Made by a program: the position numbers and the translations under genes. Below are positions 1,180-15,163 of a stretch of 32,000 nucleotides of DNA, piece by piece (the first letter of the stretch is position 1; every line of letters starts with the position of its first letter). Origin of the DNA: an uncultured bacterium (GTDB taxonomy: Bacteria; Auribacterota; JACPWU01). The DNA lies in contig CAZXEQ010000001.1 in the NCBI GenBank assembly GCA_964640155.1, positions 244,303-276,302 on the forward strand, read 5' to 3'. The notes below the pieces were generated by a model, which made no database searches, was not told the DNA's origin, and saw only the letters and a program-made list of their open reading frames with translations.

Positions 1180-1259
1180 ATTTGAAGAGTCTAATGATTC
1201 ACACAGAAGGTTTAAAGGAAAAAATCAATCGTGTAAATAAAACTGTGCCCTTTATAGAT

Positions 1260-1346
1260 GCGGGTGACGCTTGGCGAGGCGCCCCATCGAGCGCAACTTT
1301 TGATGAGCACGATGGGGCTGACAAGCGGCAGGACCCGCCACTTTTT
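1260..1346 (+). repeat. GC-rich structured element, copy A (candidate cis-regulatory RNA or palindromic repeat), core GCGGGU-GAC-GCUUG...CAAGC-GGCAGG-ACCCGC followed by CAC-UUUUU
   Basis: Read directly: gcgggtgacgcttggcgaggcgccccatcgagcgcaacttttgatgagcacgatggggctgacaagcggcaggacccgccacttttt. Nested helices are GCGGGU/ACCCGC, GCUUG/CAAGC and GCCCCAUCG/CGAUGGGGC. It is a GC-rich island in AT-rich sequence, about 20 nt upstream of the ygfZ-like start codon. About 87% identical (hand alignment) to the reverse complement of 4128-4209. Confidence 0.6.
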
Positions 1347-1365
1347 CAAAGGACACACTTTTTTA

Positions 1366-2400
1366 ATGATCATGAGAAAATCTCCTCTACACTCACAGCA
1401 TGAATCCTTAAACGCTTCTTTCAAAGAAGAAAATGGATGGCTTTTGCCTGAATATTTCAGCTCGCCAGAGAAAGAATGGGAAGCTGTTCGAACTTCAATG
1501 GGTATATTAGATCTTAATCATGTCGGTAAAATTCTGATTCAAGGGCAAGATCGTGCTTCATTCCTACATAATATGGTCTCAAATGACATTAAATCACTTT
1601 TGCCCGGGAATTATCGCTATGCAACACTTTTAACTCCCAAAGGGAAAATGATTTCTGATTTACACATTTATGCTCTTGAAAATCATTTACTTATCGCTTT
1701 AAACGAAAATCTCGTGCAACCCGTTATCGATAAACTTTCTGCTTTTATTATTTCAGAAGATGTTCAAATCCAGGATGCCACTACTTCTTATGGGCTTCTA
1801 TCACTTCAAGGACCTCAGTCAACATCCTTTGCGCAAACAATTAATTTTGACTCCTTCAAAACCAAAATATTCCCTCACAGTCGCACTGGAGAAGAAGGAT
1901 ATGATGTATGGATCCCTACCGAAAATCTCATTCCATTATGGAAGCATCTAAAAACAGGAGAAAAAACAACACCGATTGGCATGCAAGCTTATCAAATTTT
2001 GAGAATAGAAGCAGGAATCCCCCTTTTTGGAGTTGATATGAATCAAAATACCATCCCCAATGAAGCCAATTTAGAAAATGCGATCAGTTGGAATAAAGGT
2101 TGTTATCCTGGCCAGGAAATAGTCGCCAGAATCAAATACCTTGGTGGAGTTAGAAAGCTTTTAAGTGGATTCATCCTTGAGAGAGAAAGAGTCCCCAACC
2201 CACAAAGTAAAATTTTTAGGGGCAATAAAGAAATTGGCTATATCACAAGCTCTACCCATTCATTGGCCTTAAAGAAACCTATCGCCTTAGGCATCATAAA
2301 AAAAACAGATACAGATGATGGGACTCAAATTGAAATCGAAGATGGAAATGAAAAAAGAATTGGGGAAATTACAACTCTTCCGTTTTACAAGAAGCTTTAG
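1366..2400 (+). CDS. ygfZ: YgfZ/COG0354-family folate-binding protein (aminomethyltransferase GcvT-like fold, Fe-S cluster maintenance family)
   Basis: GcvT-like N-terminal region (GILDLNHVGKILIQGQDRASFLHNMVSNDI) and the family signature KGCYPGQE near the C-terminus. The track ORF starts at 1258, but its first 36 codons lie in the GC-rich repeat element. I place the start at ATG 1366 (alternative 1372). Confidence 0.8.
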   Translation: MIMRKSPLHSQHESLNASFKEENGWLLPEYFSSPEKEWEAVRTSMGILDLNHVGKILIQGQDRASFLHNMVSNDIKSLLPGNYRYATLLTPKGKMISDLHIYALENHLLIALNENLVQPVIDKLSAFIISEDVQIQDATTSYGLLSLQGPQSTSFAQTINFDSFKTKIFPHSRTGEEGYDVWIPTENLIPLWKHLKTGEKTTPIGMQAYQILRIEAGIPLFGVDMNQNTIPNEANLENAISWNKGCYPGQEIVARIKYLGGVRKLLSGFILERERVPNPQSKIFRGNKEIGYITSSTHSLALKKPIALGIIKKTDTDDGTQIEIEDGNEKRIGEITTLPFYKKL

Positions 2401-4073: not shown

Positions 4074-4127
4074 TATATCAAAAAATTTCTATAAATAGTG
4101 TTGAAAAGAGAATGCTTTGAGAGAGTA

Positions 4128-4209
4128 GCGGGTCCTGCCGCTCGTCAGGCCCCACCGTGCTCACTAAAAGTTGCGCGCGGTGGGGCTCCCCGCCAAGTGT
4201 CACCCGCAT
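4128..4209 (-). repeat. GC-rich structured element, copy B (inverted relative to copy A), core GCGGGU-GAC-ACUUG...CGAGC-GGCAGG-ACCCGC on the minus strand
   Basis: The minus strand reads atgcgggtgacacttggcggggagccccaccgcgcgcaacttttagtgagcacggtggggcctgacgagcggcaggacccgctac. It has the same architecture as copy A. The inner helix is GCCCCACCG/CGGUGGGGC, against GCCCCAUCG/CGAUGGGGC in A (U-A replaced by C-G). It lies about 55 nt upstream of, and co-oriented with, the decarboxylase gene. Confidence 0.6.
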
Positions 4210-4232
4210 CTTCAGAAGAACATAACATCCAA

Positions 4233-4299: not shown

Positions 4300-4800
4300 A
4301 TGTTAGAAACAATTCTTTTTTATTCATTTGCCATACTTGCAATCGCAACAGCCTTGCTTGTTATTTTTTCACGCCATCCTATCTACAGCGTGCTTTTTCT
4401 TGTTCTGACCATGTTTGCACTGGCATCCCTTTACATTATGCTCCATGCCTATTTTATAGCAGCCATTCAAATCATTGTTTATGCCGGAGCTATTCTTGTT
4501 CTTTTCCTTTTTGTGGTCATGCTTCTTAATTTAGATCAAGAAGGAGATGATTCTTTTCGTGTCGGACCCTCTAGATGGTTTGCTATTCCCTTAGGTTTAG
4601 CTTTTATTTGTGAACTTTATTTAGTTTTAAGCCATCTCATCCCTTCTAAAGCACAAGAAACCTTAAGCGAGGGAACAACTCAAAGTTTAGGATTCCTTCT
4701 TTTTTCAAAACATCTTTTACCTTTCGAAGTTATTTCGTTTCTTCTTCTATCCGCTATTTTAGGAACAACGGTATTGTCCAAGAGGAATTGGCAATCATGA
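4300..4800 (+). CDS. nuoJ: NADH-quinone oxidoreductase subunit J
   Basis: 166-aa hydrophobic protein with the typical NuoJ N-terminus ([33 protein letters not shown]...[21 protein letters not shown]). First gene of a J-K-L-M-N series. Confidence 0.9.
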
Positions 4801-5099
4801 TCCCACTCAATCATTATTTAATATTAAGTGGGGTTTTATTCGCCATCGGTGTGATGGGCGTTTTAATTCGCCGTAATGCGCTTATGATTCTTCTTTCTCT
4901 AGAAATCATGCTTAATGCAGCCAATTTATCTTTTGTTGCATTCTCAAGATTTTTAGGAAATTTAGAAGGTCAAATTTTTGTATTTTTTATTATTACCGTA
5001 GCCGCAGCAGAAGTCGCAGTAGGATTGGCTATTTTAATTGTACTTTTTAGAAACAAGCGATCTGTGGATACTAATCAGATTAAAATGCTTCGATGGTAA
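4797..5099 (+). CDS. nuoK: NADH-quinone oxidoreductase subunit K
   Basis: About 100 aa with three TM helices ([42 protein letters not shown]...[13 protein letters not shown]). I prefer ATG 4797, which overlaps the nuoJ stop as ATGA and follows AGAGGAA. The track start is TTG 4788. Confidence 0.9.
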
Positions 5100-6955
5100 C
5101 GAATATGGGTTGGATTATTTTATTTTCTCCTTTAATTGCATGCCTTGTGATCACACTTGTGACATTGCAAAACAAAAAACTAAGTGGTTTTATTGCCATC
5201 TTAGGACTTTTGATTTCTTTTATTTGCTCTGTGAGTGTTTTCTTACAAGCATTGCATTCCCCTGGCCAAGTCCTTGAATATAACTTAAATTGGATTTCTC
5301 TTTGGTCTCTTCAAATTGAATTTGGCATTCTCCTAGATCCCCTTTCTATTCTTATGCTTTTAATTGTGACAGGGATTGGAAGCGCTATTTTTATTTATTC
5401 TCTGGGGTATATGTCTGAAGATCGAAGTCAACCTCGCTACTTTGCTTCTTTAAGTCTTTTTGCATTTTCAATGTTGGGCATCATCCTTTCAAACAATTTA
5501 ATACAAACTTTCATTTTTTGGGAATTGGTGGGAGCTAGTTCTTATCTTTTGATTGGCTTTTGGTTTGAAAAAGATTCAGCTGCAGATGCTGGGAATAAAG
5601 CTTTCTTGGTCAATCGTGTGGGTGATTTTGGATTTGTGATTGGGATTTTAATGTGTTGGATGATTTCTGGACTTGGAACAACCCCAAAAACTTTTAATTT
5701 TTTAAAAATTGAGCATCTCTTTCCTCAACTCATCAATCAAGGACTTGTCTCTGCTGGATTATTGACACTTATCGGTCTTCTTATTTTCTGCGGAGTTCTT
5801 GGTAAATCGGCACAATTTCCCTTACATGTATGGCTCCCAGACGCCATGGAAGGCCCCACACCTGTGAGCGCCTTGATTCATGCAGCTACCATGGTCGCTG
5901 CTGGCATTTATCTTTTAGCTCGTCTTTTTTTTCTATTTGAAGTTTCACCTGAAGCAATGCAAATCATTTCCTACGTGGGTGCATTTACAAGTATTTTTGC
6001 AGCCAGTCTCGCTCTGGTTCAAAATGATATTAAACGCATTCTTGCTTATTCCACGCTTAGTCAATTAGGTCTCATGGTGATGGCGATGGGTTTGGGTGGC
6101 AAAACAGCAGGCATGTTTCATCTTGCAACACATGCCTTTTTCAAAGCACTTCTTTTCTTAGGAGCAGGAAGCATCATTCATGCACTTCACACACAAGATA
6201 TTTGGAACATGGGAAAACTCTTAAAGAAAATGCCCATTACCTCCATTACTTTCTTAATTGGGTCTTTAGCTCTTTGCGGTTTTTTCCCATTGAGTGGATT
6301 TTGGAGCAAAGATGAAATTTTGCTCACGGCTTATCATAAGAGTTTTTTTCTATATATGATTGCTTCTATCACGAGCTGGATGACTTCCTTTTATATGGCC
6401 AGGGCTTGCTTTGTTGCCATTCTAGCTCCCTCTAAAGCCCATCATCATGCCCATGAGTCAGGATGGATCATGAAAGGACCTCTGGTCTTTTTAACTTTGG
6501 GCGCTTTATTCTCTGGATTCATCGGTATTCCTCACTTCATCACGGGACCTGCTTCGCAAGGACATGTTTCCATTAATTGGAATATCGCTCTTATTTCTCA
6601 AATTTCGGCTCTCACAGCTTTAGTCTTCGCTTATTTTCTTTATATGATTCGAGATGGACAAGGAGCCAAAAAATTAAAAGTAATTTTTCATTTCCCCTAT
6701 CAAATTCTTCATAAGAAATATTTTATCGATGAAATTTATCAATGGATGGTGGATCGTGTTCAGCAAACCATCGCCATTCTCTGTAACCTTTTTGATCAAA
6801 ATGTAATTATTCGTTTTGGAGTAAATGGTACAGCACGCACGACAAGAGCTTGCGGAGAAATTTTAAGATTTTGTCAAACCGGTCGTGTTCAAACTTATGC
6901 ACTTGTCTTTTTTGCAGGAATCACCGTAATTATATTTGTGATGATATTGAGATAA
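5093..6955 (+). CDS. nuoL: NADH-quinone oxidoreductase subunit L
   Basis: 620-aa antiporter-like subunit. Conserved motifs [47 protein letters not shown] and the long C-terminal extension typical of NuoL. An alternative start is at 5105. Confidence 0.92.
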
Positions 6956-6963
6956 AGGAATTT

Positions 6964-8517
6964 ATGGGATTATTAACTTACATACTTCTTTCTCCCCTTT
7001 TGGGAATGTTGGCTATTCTTTTTATGCCTCGAGAGAATGAAAAATGGATTCGCCGTATTGCATCCATCGCAACCCTTGTGCCATTGACACTCTCTATTTT
7101 AGTCTGGGTAAAATATGATCGTATTTTAGGCGGATATCAATTCATTGACCATATTGCATGGCTTCCTTCTTTGGGCATTTCCTATCAAGTGGGCGTGGAT
7201 GGCATTGGAGTCGTAATGCTTCTTCTTCAAGGTTTCTGTGCCTTTACAGCTGTTCTAGTTTCTTACTCTATTAAAAACAGAGTTAAAGAATATTTCATCT
7301 TTTTCCTAGCCCTCATCGCCAGTATTTATGGAGTTTTCATGTCTCTGGATTTATTTTTCTTCTATTTCTTTTATGAAATGGCTGTCATCCCCATGTATCC
7401 CCTCATTGGAATTTGGGGTAGCACCAACAAAGAATATGCCACCATGAAATTGACGCTTTATATTTCAACCGGTGCTGTATTGGCTTTTGTCGCTCTTTTA
7501 GTTTTATATTTTTCTACAGGAATTTCCTCTTTTAATTTAATTGAATTGGAAAAACATTTAACTGCACATCCACTGAGTCCTCAGCTTCAAAGATTTCTCT
7601 TTCCTATTTTGATGGTGGGGTTTGGTGTCATCACTTCGCTTTGGCCTTTCCATACATGGTCTCCCATGGGTTATGCAGCAGCTCCTTCTGCGGTGAGTAT
7701 GCTTCATGCAGGTGTCCTTAAAAAGTTGGGCGCCTTTGCCATTATTCGAATTGCCATCAATCTTTTACCTGAGGGGGCCCAATATTGGTCCAATACTTTA
7801 GCAACCTTGGCTGTCATCAATATTATCTATTGCGGATGGGTCGCCATGGCTCAAAAAGATATGAAATTTATTGTCGGATATTCTAGTTGCAGTCATATGG
7901 GATATGTACTTTTAGGGATCTCCTGCTTGAATCCCAATGGGCTCAATGGTGCAGTGCTTCTTATATTCTCTCATGGCATTATGGCTGCCTTGACGTTTGC
8001 CCTGATTGGTTTTTGCTATGAGCAAACACATACCCGAATGGTTTCTGAACTAGGAGGTTTAGCTAAAAAACTCCCATTCATTGCGACTTGTTTTAGCATT
8101 GCAGCCATGGCCTCCAGTGGACTTCCTGGATTTGCTAATTTTGTTGCTGAAATCATGATTTTCTTAGGAGCCTGGGAAAGTAGACCTTTTTTTAGCATTC
8201 TTGCTATTTTTGGAATTGTCATCACAGCCACTTATCTTTTAAGAATGCTACGCCATGTCTTTTTTGGCCCCCTCAATCCTAAGTGGTCAGAGCTTCAAGA
8301 TGCAAAAACTATTTTTCAGAAATTACCTTTTAGCTTGTTGATTGCAGCTCTTATTCTGATTGGATTTGTGCCTTCTCTTCTCACACGCATTATTGATGAT
8401 TCGACTCATTTGATTTTTGAACGTTCATCAAAAACAGTAGAAAGAATTTTGGTTCAAAACAATTCAACAAACTCTTCTCCTGAAACAACAATCGCACCCG
8501 AGGGTTTATGGGTATAG
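6964..8517 (+). CDS. nuoM: NADH-quinone oxidoreductase subunit M
   Basis: Antiporter-like subunit (FFYFFYEMAVIPMYPLIGIWG, WPFHTWSPMGYAAAPSAVSMLHAGVLKKLG). The track ORF starts at 6850 inside nuoL. ATG 6964 follows the nuoL stop and an AAGGAA ribosome-binding site. Confidence 0.92.
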   Translation: MGLLTYILLSPLLGMLAILFMPRENEKWIRRIASIATLVPLTLSILVWVKYDRILGGYQFIDHIAWLPSLGISYQVGVDGIGVVMLLLQGFCAFTAVLVSYSIKNRVKEYFIFFLALIASIYGVFMSLDLFFFYFFYEMAVIPMYPLIGIWGSTNKEYATMKLTLYISTGAVLAFVALLVLYFSTGISSFNLIELEKHLTAHPLSPQLQRFLFPILMVGFGVITSLWPFHTWSPMGYAAAPSAVSMLHAGVLKKLGAFAIIRIAINLLPEGAQYWSNTLATLAVINIIYCGWVAMAQKDMKFIVGYSSCSHMGYVLLGISCLNPNGLNGAVLLIFSHGIMAALTFALIGFCYEQTHTRMVSELGGLAKKLPFIATCFSIAAMASSGLPGFANFVAEIMIFLGAWESRPFFSILAIFGIVITATYLLRMLRHVFFGPLNPKWSELQDAKTIFQKLPFSLLIAALILIGFVPSLLTRIIDDSTHLIFERSSKTVERILVQNNSTNSSPETTIAPEGLWV

Positions 8518-9935
8518 ATTTTTTAAACATCTTTTCTCATTTTAGAATTGAATTGGCCTTAAGTGCCGGAATACTCATTTTTCTTGTTTTGGATCTTTTC
8601 TTCAAAGAAAGGGGGAAACTGGGGAGTTGGTGCATCAGTTTGGTGAGCTTTCTTTTTGTCCTTCAAATTTTTAATTGGGGAAATGAAGGTGTTTTCTTTT
8701 CGGGGAGTTTTCTTCAGGATAAACTATCTCATCTCTTTAAAATCTTTTTTCTCCTCACAACATTTTTTATTTTAATCATGTCTCAAAATTATATTGAGCG
8801 ACTTGAGCGTGGCCAAGCCGAGTTCTATCTTCTAATTCTTTTGGCTGCTTTAGGCATGATTTTCATGGCGTCCGCTGGCAATTTTATTCTCCTCTTTGTT
8901 TCCTTAGAACTTATCACCGTTTCTTTCTACATTATGACCGCTTATTTAAGAACAGATCCTAAATCCACAGAAGCAGGTCTTAAATATTTGATTTTGGGAG
9001 CGCTTTCTTCAGGTTTTCTCCTTTATGGCATCAGTTTCATTTATGGCATCACCGGTAGTACCAATTTTGCTTCCATCACCGAATATTTATTACGGGAAGG
9101 ATTCTCTTCAAAAGGAGTTCTTTTCGGTTTCCTTCTGATTCTTTCAGGAATCGGATTTAAAATTGCTTCTGTCCCCTTTCAATTTTGGGTACCGGATGTC
9201 TACGAGGGAGCACCCACACCTGTCACAGCTTTTTTATCTGTAGGATCTAAAACAGCTGGCTTTTTGTTTTTCTTAAGAGTCTTGCATCTTTTCCCCCATT
9301 TTGAACATGAAAAAGCATTGCTTCTCAGCGTGCTTTCAGCAATGACATTGATTTATGGAAATTTAGGTGCTCTTCCTCAAAAGAATATTAAACGTTTACT
9401 TGGGTATTCCAGCATTGGACATGCAGGATATCTTTTAATGGGCTTAGCGTCAGGTTCACCCTTAGGAACAACTGGAGTTATTTACTATCTATTCTCTTAT
9501 CTTTTTACAAACCTGGGAGCCTTTCTTGTTGTTACTCTTGTTTCCAAAAATTCTGACACTGATGAAATAAGCCATTTCTCTGGCCTTTCTGTGCGATCTC
9601 CTCTTCTTGCAGCTGGAATGCTTATCGCACTCATGAGTTTAGCGGGGGTGCCTCCTCTTTCTGGTTTCTTTGGAAAATTTCTTTTAATCAGTTCTGTCGT
9701 TCAAAAAGGAATGATCTGGCTTGCCATTATTGGGGCTTTAAGTGTGGTCGTTTCTCTTTATTATTATCTGATGATCGTCAAACAAATGTATTTGGATAAA
9801 CCCATAGCAGATCATACGATTCCAATCAATCCCCTCACCAAAGCAGCTATCTATTTATCAATCTTCGGAATTATCTTCCTCGGAGTTTTCCAAGCACCAC
9901 TGATGAGATTGATTGCTACAACTATCAATCAATAA
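8508..9935 (+). CDS. nuoN: NADH-quinone oxidoreductase subunit N
   Basis: 475-aa antiporter-like subunit (SVPFQFWVPDVYEGAPTPVTAFLSVGSK, LLGYSSIGHAGYLLMG). Overlaps the nuoM stop by 10 nt. Last gene of the cluster. Confidence 0.92.
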   Translation: MGIDFLNIFSHFRIELALSAGILIFLVLDLFFKERGKLGSWCISLVSFLFVLQIFNWGNEGVFFSGSFLQDKLSHLFKIFFLLTTFFILIMSQNYIERLERGQAEFYLLILLAALGMIFMASAGNFILLFVSLELITVSFYIMTAYLRTDPKSTEAGLKYLILGALSSGFLLYGISFIYGITGSTNFASITEYLLREGFSSKGVLFGFLLILSGIGFKIASVPFQFWVPDVYEGAPTPVTAFLSVGSKTAGFLFFLRVLHLFPHFEHEKALLLSVLSAMTLIYGNLGALPQKNIKRLLGYSSIGHAGYLLMGLASGSPLGTTGVIYYLFSYLFTNLGAFLVVTLVSKNSDTDEISHFSGLSVRSPLLAAGMLIALMSLAGVPPLSGFFGKFLLISSVVQKGMIWLAIIGALSVVVSLYYYLMIVKQMYLDKPIADHTIPINPLTKAAIYLSIFGIIFLGVFQAPLMRLIATTINQ

Positions 9936-9957
9936 TTTCTACAAAATGTGTTGATTG

Positions 9958-10150
9958 ATTCGGGTGACCAACGAATTCTAGTCATGAATGATCGTACTCG
10001 AGTGAAAGTAACAAAAGAAAAGACACCCCATTCAGATTCATTCAAAGATGAATCAATCACGATTAGAAATCAAATTTCTTATGGGCGTTGGAATACGTAC
10101 GAGAGAAGAGAGTGAATGACTTTCGTTGGGCAGGACCCGATTCTTTTTGA
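9958..10150 (+). repeat. GC-rich structured element, copy C (long variant, about 190 nt) with identical junctions UCGGGU-GAC-CAACGA...UCGUUG-GGCAGG-ACCCGA followed by UUCUUUUU
   Basis: Read directly: tcgggtgac caacga ... tcgttg ggcagg acccga ttcttttt. The closing pair G:C of copies A/B is replaced by U:A. The second helix is a completely different but complementary sequence. The interior retains CCCCAU...AUGGG and a GAUUCAU/AUGAAUC hairpin. It fills the convergent gap between nuoN and leuD. Confidence 0.55.
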
Positions 10151-10181
10151 AGAGATACAACTACAACGAATAAATTAATTT

Positions 10182-10814
10182 CTATCTCTGCACGTTATGA
10201 TGCTTTTCAAACGCAGTAATATCCTTCTCATGTTGAAGCGTAATACCAATATCATCTAAACCATGAATCAGGCGATGTTTGATGGCAGGATCGATTTCAA
10301 AATGAAATGAGATTTCTTCAGATAAGTGGAGGGTAACACTCTGATGTTCAAGATTCACAGAAGCTTCCAAGCCCTTGAATCGAGATACCATTTGAAAGAT
10401 TTCTTCAACTTCGGCTTCTTTTAACTCAATCGTCAAAAGACCATTTTTTAAACTGTTATTTCTAAAAATATCTGCAAAGCCAGGAATAAAACTTCCATCA
10501 CGGTCAACACTGGGTGCAATTACCACATGAAAACCGTACTGGTCAATGGCCCATACCGCATGTTCACGACTTGAACCACAACCAAAATTATTCCGAGCCA
10601 CTAAAATCGTAGCACCTTTAAAACGATCTTCATTCAATTCAAACTTTGGATTAAGTTTTCCATCAGGCAAATATCTCCAATCATGAAAAAGATGTTCACC
10701 AAAACCCGTACGCGTAATCTTTTTCAAGAATTGTTTAGCAATAATCTGATCTGTATCCACATTGGCTTTGTCCAATGTTGCGATCAAACCCCGATGATTT
10801 TTAAATGATTTCAT
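10182..10814 (-). CDS. leuD: 3-isopropylmalate dehydratase small subunit
   Basis: Typical LeuD sequence ([43 protein letters not shown]). ATG at 10814 lies 5 nt after the leuC stop. The track start TTG 10829 would overlap leuC. Confidence 0.9.
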
Positions 10815-12282: not shown

Positions 12283-13653
12283 TTATTTTTGATTAGCTAA
12301 GCCTTCCAAAAAATGTACCATGCTTAAAATTCCCTTATGAAAATTCTCAAGGTTTAACTTCTCATTAGGAGCATGTGCATTTTCATCAGGCAGGCCAAAA
12401 CCCAGAAGAACACAGGGTTTCTTCAAAACTTCAGAGATAGTTCTTACAAAAGGAATGGTACCCCCTTCACGAATAAAATAAGTTTTCTTACCAAAGGCTT
12501 TTTCTAAAGCATGTTGCGCCACTTTTAAAACGGGCTGATCCATATCTTCCAAAAATGCTTTGGATCCGTGATGTTCGGTTACTTTAACTCGAACTGTTTT
12601 AGGTGCAATGCTTTCAACATATTTCTTAAAACATTTCGAAATTTTCTTGGGATCTTGATCAGGAACCAAGCGCATGCTGATTTTCGCACTTGCTTTAGCT
12701 GGAATAATGGTTTTAGACCCTTCCCCACTAAAACCCCCAAAAATTCCATTTACATCCAAGGTAGGCCTTGCCCAGATTCTCTCTAAAGGGACATAACCTT
12801 TTTCTCCTGTCAACTCAGGCACCCCAGTCAACTTCAAAAATTTCTTATCCGAATAAGGAAGACTGCGAAGCATTTTCTTTTCCTTGGTAGATAAGGCCCA
12901 AACATCATCATAAAATCCAGGAATCAAAACTTTTCCATTTTTATCTTTCAACTGGGCTAGAATTTTAGCCAAAGCAAGTGCTGGATTATCCACAACCCCA
13001 CCCCAAATACCCGAATGCAAATCCTGAAAAGGTCCACTTACTTCTAGCTCTACATAACAAAGACCCCGCAAGCCATAACAAACAGAAGGCATCCCTTTAT
13101 CCAACATTGGAGTATCTGAAATCACAATCGTGTCAGCTTTAAGCAACTCTTTATGTTTTTTCAAAAATGTATTTAAACTTGGGCTTCCTATTTCCTCTTC
13201 ACCCTCTATAAAAATTTTGACATTGACTGGCAATTTCCCTCGAGTTTTTAAGAAGGCTTCTACTGCTGAAAGATGAATATAAACCTGCCCCTTATCATCA
13301 ATCGCTCCGCGCGCGAATAATTCTCCATTACGAATCGTCGGTTCAAAAGGAGGTGTAACCCATTCATTCAAGGGATCTACGGGTTGAACATCATAATGAC
13401 CATAAATCAAAACGGTAGGTTGACCTGGAGCATTAAGCCACTCTCCATAGACAATGGGGTGACGCTCTGTTTTAAAAACTTCTACACAATCCAAGCCCCA
13501 ATTTTTAAGTTTTTCAGCAATAAAATCAGCACACCGCGCCACTTCTTGAACATGATTTGGACTCACACTGATGCTTGGAATTCTTAAACATGCATTTAAA
13601 TTTTCAATAAACTCTTTTTGATGCGTATTGACATAGGAAAGGACTTCTTGCAT
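12283..13653 (-). CDS. M20-family metallopeptidase (dipeptidase/ArgE-DapE-CPG2 superfamily)
   Basis: 456 aa with M20 motifs (LIYGHYDVQPV, ARGAIDDKGQ, EGEEEIGSP). Substrate not inferable. Confidence 0.85.
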   Translation of the reverse strand: MQEVLSYVNTHQKEFIENLNACLRIPSISVSPNHVQEVARCADFIAEKLKNWGLDCVEVFKTERHPIVYGEWLNAPGQPTVLIYGHYDVQPVDPLNEWVTPPFEPTIRNGELFARGAIDDKGQVYIHLSAVEAFLKTRGKLPVNVKIFIEGEEEIGSPSLNTFLKKHKELLKADTIVISDTPMLDKGMPSVCYGLRGLCYVELEVSGPFQDLHSGIWGGVVDNPALALAKILAQLKDKNGKVLIPGFYDDVWALSTKEKKMLRSLPYSDKKFLKLTGVPELTGEKGYVPLERIWARPTLDVNGIFGGFSGEGSKTIIPAKASAKISMRLVPDQDPKKISKCFKKYVESIAPKTVRVKVTEHHGSKAFLEDMDQPVLKVAQHALEKAFGKKTYFIREGGTIPFVRTISEVLKKPCVLLGFGLPDENAHAPNEKLNLENFHKGILSMVHFLEGLANQK

Positions 13654-14284: not shown

Positions 14285-15163
14285 ATGTACTCTGGACGTG
14301 ACACCATCATTATTCCTCCACCCCAGGCTTCTCAAGGCCGAAACAACGAAAGCGCCTGCTTAGTCATTATCTCTGGAAATCCTATTGGAAAAGTTTTCTT
14401 TCTAGAAAAAGAAAATATCATCGGAAGATCTGAAGAAGATACGGTCTACCTAGCAGACCCCTCCATTTCACGTATTCATGCAAAATTAAATTTTCATGAA
14501 GGCCAATGGCAACTTCAAGACATGGGAAGCAGTAATGGAACGCATGTCAATTTCTCTAAGATTACAGAAAAAATTTTACAGGGAGGAGAAACCCTTACGG
14601 TTGGAGCAACTTCATTAAAATTCTTAGTCGCCAATAAAATTGAAAAAGATTTTTACGAACGTGTTTTCAATATGACTTCCAAAGACGCTTTGACGGAGGC
14701 TTTCACAAAATCTTTTCTCTTGGAAATTGTAGCAAGTGAATTTGCTCGTGCACTCCTTCACCAAAAACCTCTTTCCTTTTGCATGATGGACCTAGACAAT
14801 TTCAAAAATTGCAATGATCAATATGGACATTTAGCAGGAGATTTCATTTTAAAAGAGTGGATTAATCTTTTACGTCAAAGCATTCGTTCTTCAGATATTT
14901 TGGGCCGCTTTGGAGGAGAAGAATTTGGGCTTCTTTTACCAAACCAAACACTTGCTCAAGCTGAACAAACGATCAAACGTCTCATGCAAAAAACTCACGG
15001 ACATACTTTTACTTATGAAGGGGAGGTAATTTCCATTACTTTCAGCGCAGGTCTTTCAACATTAGAGCCACAAATTCATGATTTTGAAAATTTGCTCAAA
15101 AAAGCAGATGAGAATCTATATAAAGCAAAGGCAAAGGGAAGAAATTGTTATGTATCAAGATAG
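14285..15163 (+). CDS. FHA-domain diguanylate cyclase (FHA + GGDEF)
   Basis: The N-terminal FHA domain reads IGRSEEDTVYLADPSISRIHAKL...MGSSNGTHVN. The C-terminal GGDEF domain has active site GGEEF and an RSSD (RxxD) inhibitory site five residues upstream. RBS AGGAG precedes the ATG. Confidence 0.9.
   Translation: MYSGRDTIIIPPPQASQGRNNESACLVIISGNPIGKVFFLEKENIIGRSEEDTVYLADPSISRIHAKLNFHEGQWQLQDMGSSNGTHVNFSKITEKILQGGETLTVGATSLKFLVANKIEKDFYERVFNMTSKDALTEAFTKSFLLEIVASEFARALLHQKPLSFCMMDLDNFKNCNDQYGHLAGDFILKEWINLLRQSIRSSDILGRFGGEEFGLLLPNQTLAQAEQTIKRLMQKTHGHTFTYEGEVISITFSAGLSTLEPQIHDFENLLKKADENLYKAKAKGRNCYVSR

Follow-up and report, generated by a model that had tools for sequence, protein, structure and literature searches.

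A probable family of hairpin-forming MITEs in an Auribacterota-like lineage, with a long variant between nuoN and leuD

The sequence lying between the 3' ends of nuoN and leuD (copy C) is, judging by its structure and flanks, very probably a non-autonomous hairpin-forming MITE. Its family includes two other copies (A and B) in the window, that is, in the whole 32,000-nt stretch of DNA that was analysed, and at least twelve copies in JAYRIK01, a related Candidatus Auribacterota MAG. The hairpin family is a previously undescribed MITE family, ordinary in kind, in a little-studied lineage. To our knowledge, the candidate phylum Auribacterota is represented only by MAGs, and we know of no repeat families described in the PVC-related Ca. 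Auribacterota-like lineage. The element is small and has no transposase gene, its copies are dispersed (three of them in the 32-kb window), they have terminal inverted repeats, target-site duplications are found, and the element is present at some sites and absent from the corresponding sites of relatives.

Copy C and its target site

Copy C is bordered by a 9-bp direct repeat, which sets its full extent at 9942-10175 (234 bp) instead of the approximately 190 nt assigned to it in the first-pass annotation. The region is composed of the following parts.

9933..9941, no strand: left 9-bp duplication TAATTTCTA, which holds the nuoN stop codon TAA (9933-9935)
9942..9959, + strand: left outer arm of copy C, CAAAATGTGTTGATTGAT, which aligns to the family left-arm consensus AAAAnTGTGTCCTTTATAGAT
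9960..9968, + strand: 5' strand of P1, TCGGGT, and the "junction" GAC, part of the conserved left family end
9969..10128, + strand: interior of 160 nt specific to copy C, 37% GC, standing where the short form has its GC-rich P2-P3 core of 58-59 nt
10129..10140, + strand: "junction" GGCAGG and 3' strand of P1, ACCCGA, part of the conserved right family end
10141..10175, + strand: right outer arm of copy C, TTCTTTTTGAAGAGATACAACTACAACGAATAAAT, including the U tract; its best alignment is to the right arm of the L017 copy
10176..10184, no strand: right 9-bp duplication TAATTTCTA, which holds the leuD stop codon, CTA on the + strand and TAG on the - strand (10182-10184)

The perfect match of the two repeats (9/9) was reached by 3 of 300 shuffles, and approximately 1% of random positions in the window give such a 9-bp repeat. 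Removal of copy C and one repeat restores the sequence ...CAA TAA TTT CTA..., in which the stop codons of nuoN and leuD are 3 nt apart. The restored junction fits the tight or overlapping arrangement of relatives, and the duplication has remade both stop codons of two abutting convergent genes. The convergent nuoN-leuD arrangement itself is conserved in relatives. The gap measures 246 nt in the window. In L024 (NuoN 68% identical) it is 50 nt long and its sequence is unrelated, and in L025 and L026 (61% identical) there is no gap, the genes overlapping by 26 nt. The element is absent from all three. As the gap is short or negative in syntenic relatives, copy C is a lineage-specific insertion.

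Copy C reads TCGGGT-GAC-CAACGAA ... TTCGTTG-GGCAGG-ACCCGA-TTCTTTTT, and its immediate context is ...gattgatt-CGGGT-GAC-CAACGAA...TTCGTTG-GGCAGG-ACCCG-attcttttt. The 8-mer CGGGTGAC and the 11-mer GGCAGGACCCG each occur without mismatches in copies A, B and C and nowhere else in the window, the chance expectation for an exact 11-mer being approximately 0.015 per 64 kb. Thus the identity of the GAC and GGCAGG junctions and of the CGGGT/ACCCG core in the three copies, noticed at first pass, holds exactly. The outer pair of P1 is indeed U:A in copy C and not G:C, and P2 is indeed different: it is a perfect 7-bp complement, CAACGAA/TTCGTTG, unrelated in sequence to GCTTG/CAAGC, and this inverted repeat borders the interior. 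The distance from GAC to GGCAGG is 160 nt, compared with 58-59 nt in copies A and B, in agreement with the approximately 100 extra nucleotides reported.

The family ends retained in copy C comprise approximately 27 nt on the left and 47 nt on the right. Beyond the span reported earlier, the other copies can be aligned to copy C along its left arm (CAAAATGTGT...) and its right arm (ATTCTTTTTGAAGAGATAC...). Since it aligns with both arms, copy C is a true family member at its ends, and its proposed kinship with copies A and B stands. The motif CAAAAT(A/G)TGT opens both copy C and the element at L011, where it directly follows that element's own 9-bp repeat.

The interior, which is AT-rich, is unrelated to the family core. 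The covariance model of the short family scores copy C at 13 bits (E about 6) and thus does not recognise it, and blastn of the interior against all related loci examined gave no match. The supposed remnant of the inner helix, CCCCAU...AUGGG, is a complement of 5-6 nt, about a dozen of which are expected by chance in 160 nt, and it is unpaired in the MFE fold. The sole ORF of copy C lies in the interior (43-55 aa, 9948/9984-10115). Its 43-aa form has no Pfam match, and in a search against 1.84 billion representatives its only significant match was to itself; the second match listed (E 8.9e-5) came without an aligned stretch. A scan of metagenomes (JGI) for the 3' end of copy C, TTCGTTGGGCAGGACCCG, gave 20 matches, all of them chance occurrences in GC-rich coding DNA. 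Copy C is the sole long variant among 15 copies. It is a variant with a replaced core, and the candidate origins of this replacement are descent from a long subfamily and a nested insertion accompanied by a deletion.

The short form, its dispersal and the orthologous sites

Copies A and B represent the short form of the element.

1238..1365, + strand: copy A, a 79-nt hairpin (1260-1338) flanked by a left and a right arm, located after the promoter region and before the beginning of the gcvT-like gene
4103..4220, - strand: copy B, with hairpin (4207-4128) and both arms, upstream of the TPP-enzyme gene

In copy A, the final 12 or so nucleotides of the right arm are apparently missing. It precedes a gene of the GcvT family, copy B precedes the gene of a TPP-dependent enzyme, and copy C is placed between two gene 3' ends. 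The hairpins of copies A and B are 79-80 nt long and contain 66-70% GC, compared with 38% in the window and the genome; the GC-rich core proper is 58 nt. Each folds at approximately -42 kcal/mol (z = -3.8 for copy A and -2.9 for copy B).

The conserved loop GCGCAACTTTTNNTGAGCAC was scanned over 185,579 species-representative genomes. There were 11 true exact matches, all in JAYRIK01, and the other seven were chance occurrences in unrelated taxa. A twelfth copy lies nearby in the same MAG, so that the total is at least 12 copies, on 11 contigs. The covariance model R1 found no further copies over the related loci. Viral contigs contained no matches to the loop pattern and at least 120 matches to a looser 5' pattern, those listed all being due to chance. 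Among genomes with an ortholog, the closest is the MAG "Candidatus Auribacterota bacterium SZ_szas25bin.51" (GCA_041906865.1), whose GcvT is 79% identical, and more distant relatives are labelled as Chlamydiae or Chlamydiota MAGs.

The mean column identity in the alignment of 14 copies is 75%, and the conservation runs past the hairpin into the arms. The loop and junction nucleotides are invariant in 13 of the 14. The conserved ends are formed by a left arm of 19-22 nt followed by GCGGGTGAC and by GGCAGGACCCGC followed by a right arm of 36-37 nt, and they are imperfectly inverted. The right-arm consensus CTACTTTTTnAAAGGACACAnTTTT resembles the reverse complement of the left arm. The terminal inverted repeats pair the left arm AAAAnTGTGTCCTTT... 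with the reverse-complemented right arm ...AAAGGACACAnTTTT, and include GCGGGT/ACCCGC; they are imperfect, and the arms are asymmetric.

The element at L011 has a perfect 9-bp flanking repeat, CTTATAAAT, in the same geometry as copy C (again reached by 3 of 300 shuffles), with arms of 22 nt against 19 nt in copy C on the left and 37 nt against 36 nt on the right. It is 136 bp long, compared with 234 bp for copy C, in a family ranging from 130 to 234 bp. Clean target-site duplications were observed in only two of the 15 copies, whereas the other 13 match at 5-8 of nine positions, like shuffles. This is expected for older insertions (PMC10969869), yet it limits the evidence.

Relative to the flanking ORFs, five of the 12 copies outside copy C are sense-upstream and seven are antisense. 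The genes beside the copies are functionally unrelated: ComEC, a class-A PBP (PBP1), an AMP-binding enzyme, YdjM, A2M, the gcvT-like gene and the TPP enzyme. The short-form sequence subtypes are common to both genomes, and this could reflect a constraint beyond transposition.

The base pairing of the short form is well conserved: 95.9% of cells are paired, compared with 33-43% when the partners are slid. Compensatory changes were found in five pairs, with 14 cells changed on both sides, and the covariation score was reached by none of 500 shuffles. Thus the covarying helices of the first-pass annotation stand for the short family, but not for copy C, which is one sequence with the whole interior swapped and no homologous helix. 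Moreover, covariation of the hairpin is equally expected of a palindromic mobile element, which keeps its hairpin in any case. The invariant junctions, which had been taken as a mark of selection on RNA, simply belong to the conserved ends of the family.

Comparison with syntenic relatives revealed presence/absence polymorphism at three sites, the nuoN-leuD gap being one of them. The pair of gcvT-like and TPP-enzyme genes is syntenic in L002, L003 and L004. The hairpin upstream of gcvT is absent in all three (GcvT identity 79%, 59% and 49%, respectively), and so is the right arm of copy A at the orthologous site. The flanks of the gcvT leader are approximately 90% identical in the window and L002, though L002 has no hairpin. 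The "empty" site of L002 (L002:9965-9999, compared with window positions 1231-1365) contains 35 nt not alignable to the window, part of which (TGTATTCTACATCAGAT) is weakly similar to the family left arm. One possibility is that an old copy was lost there, rather than never present.

Upstream of the TPP-enzyme gene, L003 has no element. In L002 (approximately 12735-12860) a segment of about 120 bp corresponding to copy B, including the hairpin and both arms, is inverted within near-identical flanks. No clear recombination repeats were observed at this inversion (window 4103-4220, - strand, compared with L002). As derived arm sequences are common to both, the copies at this site look like one insertion that was later flipped, or like an excision followed by re-insertion.

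Several other features of these regions were noticed. The genes nuoJ-K-L-M-N form a cluster of their own (window 4300-9935; L003 8165-9901), divergent from the TPP-enzyme gene and with no nuoA-I upstream, which suggests that the nuo operon is split in the source lineage. In the MAG GCA_016178055.1 ("Chlamydiae bacterium"), another GC-rich, strongly self-complementary stretch of approximately 140 nt is located upstream of the gcvT-like gene (L004:9860-10000); no Rfam family matches it, and it possibly represents a further repeat family. The window also contains a gene with FHA and GGDEF domains (14285-15163, + strand), that is, a diguanylate cyclase with a phosphopeptide-binding domain, which is unrelated to the hairpin family.

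Possible roles and origins

The 9-bp duplication points to a DDE-type transposase. Acting in trans, it would mobilise the element via 9-bp staggered cuts at the conserved ends. Recognition of these ends by the transposase would explain why GAC, GGCAGG and CGGGT/ACCCG stay constant, whereas the interior can vary freely. The compensatory changes of the short form would stem from palindrome homogenisation or from selection on the hairpin at the level of the element, and not from a host RNA function. A search via solo arm motifs over approximately 150 kb of related sequence yielded neither a parent insertion sequence nor a transposase whose ends match those of the family. Known MITEs have terminal inverted repeats, direct repeats that decay with age and stable stem-loops, and insert into AT-rich intergenic DNA (PMC10969869). 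They are also typically AT-rich (PMC10969869), and the GC-rich core (66-70%) in a genome with 38% GC goes against this norm.

The first-pass annotation had correctly placed copy C in a convergent gap at the 3' end of the nuo genes, followed by a U tract, and had suggested a terminator. Exaptation of copy C as an intrinsic terminator or 3' stabiliser of nuoJ-N, insulating it from the convergent leuCD transcript, is possible, although we consider it rather doubtful. A consensus scan gave one site on the + strand (10125-10150), consisting of a hairpin and TCTTTTTG, as a pattern match only. The whole 180-nt fold of copy C has an energy of -53 kcal/mol (z = -3.1) and is closed by P1 and the new 7-bp stem. 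Before the insertion, the stop codons only 3 nt apart left no room for a terminator, and MITE families with terminator-like ends, such as SPRITE, are known (PMC10969869). On the other hand, relatives manage without copy C, in which 1-3 nt separate the stem from the U tract. Further, of the eight copies situated just downstream of gene 3' ends, only two are oriented so that the U tract comes after the hairpin, and hence termination does not look like a trait selected at the level of the family. Still, given the terminator-like hairpin and U tract of copy C, a by-product role in the formation of nuo 3' ends is plausible: nuo transcripts could be terminated or stabilised by the long 3' hairpin and U tract that copy C would give them.

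It is improbable, but worth stating, that the GC-rich core, in which the loop GCGCAACUUUUNNUGAGCAC is invariant and GAC/GGCAGG forms an internal loop, is a functional structured nucleic-acid module used by the host or by the element and maintained through compensatory changes. It might be, for instance, a small-RNA gene that is mobile and carries a TATAGAT -10-like box of its own, or else a hairpin that binds a protein and was spread by transposition. We leave this slim chance of a separate function of the core because of the inversion in the TPP leader, the asymmetric arms and the GC-rich core with subtypes common to species. If the core is indeed functional, copy C would mean that the ends alone suffice for mobility and that the core is a separable "cargo".

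Less probable still is a REP/BIME-like or IS200/IS605-derived single-strand element, whose stems and unpaired nucleotides would be kept by Y1 (RAYT/TnpA) recognition. Such an origin would agree with a hairpin strongly kept through compensatory changes, with the invariance of specific unpaired nucleotides and with the predominance of G:U pairs over A:C mismatches on the drawn strand. However, Y1 single-strand transposition (IS200/IS605, RAYT) makes no target-site duplications, whereas two copies have 9-bp duplications, and elements of 130-234 bp with outer inverted arms are larger than REPs. Nor do the folding energies favour one strand overall: the mean difference between the top and bottom strands is -0.6 kcal/mol, and the top strand is the more stable one in eight of 14 copies. 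No RAYT gene was seen in a search narrower than the genome.

The least probable reading, and a very unlikely one, follows the first-pass annotation in supposing selection on a folded RNA, here a cis-regulatory riboswitch-like or protein-binding leader, with copies A and B in 5' UTRs and copy C as a long-P3 variant at a 3' end. Copies A and B are both in the sense orientation, 5' of two adjacent syntenic genes (the gcvT-like gene and the TPP enzyme), the covariation in the short family is real, and its loop and junctions are nearly invariant, as described above. However, there is no Rfam 15 match at the gathering threshold, and those with E up to 10 are at chance level. The orthologous 5' regions either have no element (gcvT in L002 and L003, TPP in L003) or have it inverted (TPP in L002). 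The copies outside copy C are mostly antisense (7/12) and have unrelated neighbours, and one of them is within an ORF; target-site duplications are present, and both strands fold about equally well. Thus, of the features of a riboswitch, sense placement in coherent 5' UTRs, orthologous conservation and a curated match were not observed, and covariation was observed in the short form only. The first-pass annotation had itself named presence/absence polymorphism with target-site duplications as the pattern of a MITE, and both were found. Presence/absence and orientation have already largely refuted the regulatory reading. The known riboswitch classes ZTP, THF and glycine, considered in view of the gcvT-like context, gave no Rfam match at the gathering threshold or with E up to 10, and the orthologous leaders do not contain the element.

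Similar elements and consequences for annotation

ERIC (IRU) elements of enterobacteria and Correia elements of Neisseria are imperfect palindromes of approximately 100-150 bp, which occur in either orientation in transcribed intergenic regions and can affect mRNA ends. As in the MITE family described here, their length variants have the same ends and are distinguished by insertions or deletions in the interior; the sequences themselves are not similar. However, the core of copy C is wholly swapped, rather than interrupted at a defined internal site, and the duplication made by Correia elements is TA, compared with 9 bp here.

Rickettsia palindromic elements (RPE) were reportedly described by Ogata et al. 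in 2000. RPEs are palindromic repeats residing in frame within protein genes (PMC10969869). Similarly, one copy of the present family (L021:6403-6484) is in frame in an alpha-2-macroglobulin ORF of more than 1533 codons (L021:3401-8000, + strand), which remains intact. The copy is translated as ...TGDARRGGPSSATFAEHDGADERQDPP..., has Pfam domains (MG, bait-region) on both sides, and immediately precedes the block matched to E. coli YfhM in an indirect PDB alignment. A protein search for A2M homologues without the inserted segment gave no matches. Unlike RPEs, which are AT-rich and unrelated in sequence, the family has only this one in-frame case among 15 copies.

The QMITE1 and QMITE2 elements of Coxiella burnetii are likewise small, non-coding, multi-copy and intergenic, with terminal inverted repeats (PMC10969869). 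MITEs of this type also share with the present family the direct repeats found only in some (younger) copies and the very stable stem-loops in transcripts (PMC10969869). The differences are the GC-rich core in an AT-rich genome, the asymmetric arms, and the fact that no parent IS was found here; in sequence, too, the two are unrelated. Finally, SPRITE is a mobile repeat with an end similar to an intrinsic terminator, a hairpin followed by a U tract (PMC10969869), as in copy C; however, the present family has no preference for the terminator sense, and the sequences are unrelated.

The longest ORF of the gcvT-like gene (window 1258-2400, + strand) has its ATG within copy A (gATGCGGG), and the entire element is read in frame. 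The gcvT-like protein in the database, of 342 aa, begins near 1369. Thus gene callers could add a false N-terminal extension of approximately 37 aa to the gcvT-like gene. At L011:4491-4536, a YdjM-like ORF on the minus strand ends within the right arm of the element, and its last 14 or so codons appear to be derived from it. Together with the A2M gene of L021, these genes are traps for annotation.

The assignment of the family to MITEs averts a false riboswitch or structured-RNA call. Since many JAYRIK contigs that bear copies are short, these repeats probably fragment assemblies of the source candidate phylum. As to copy C, it exemplifies a harmless landing at gene ends, which creates a new intergenic spacer with terminator potential.
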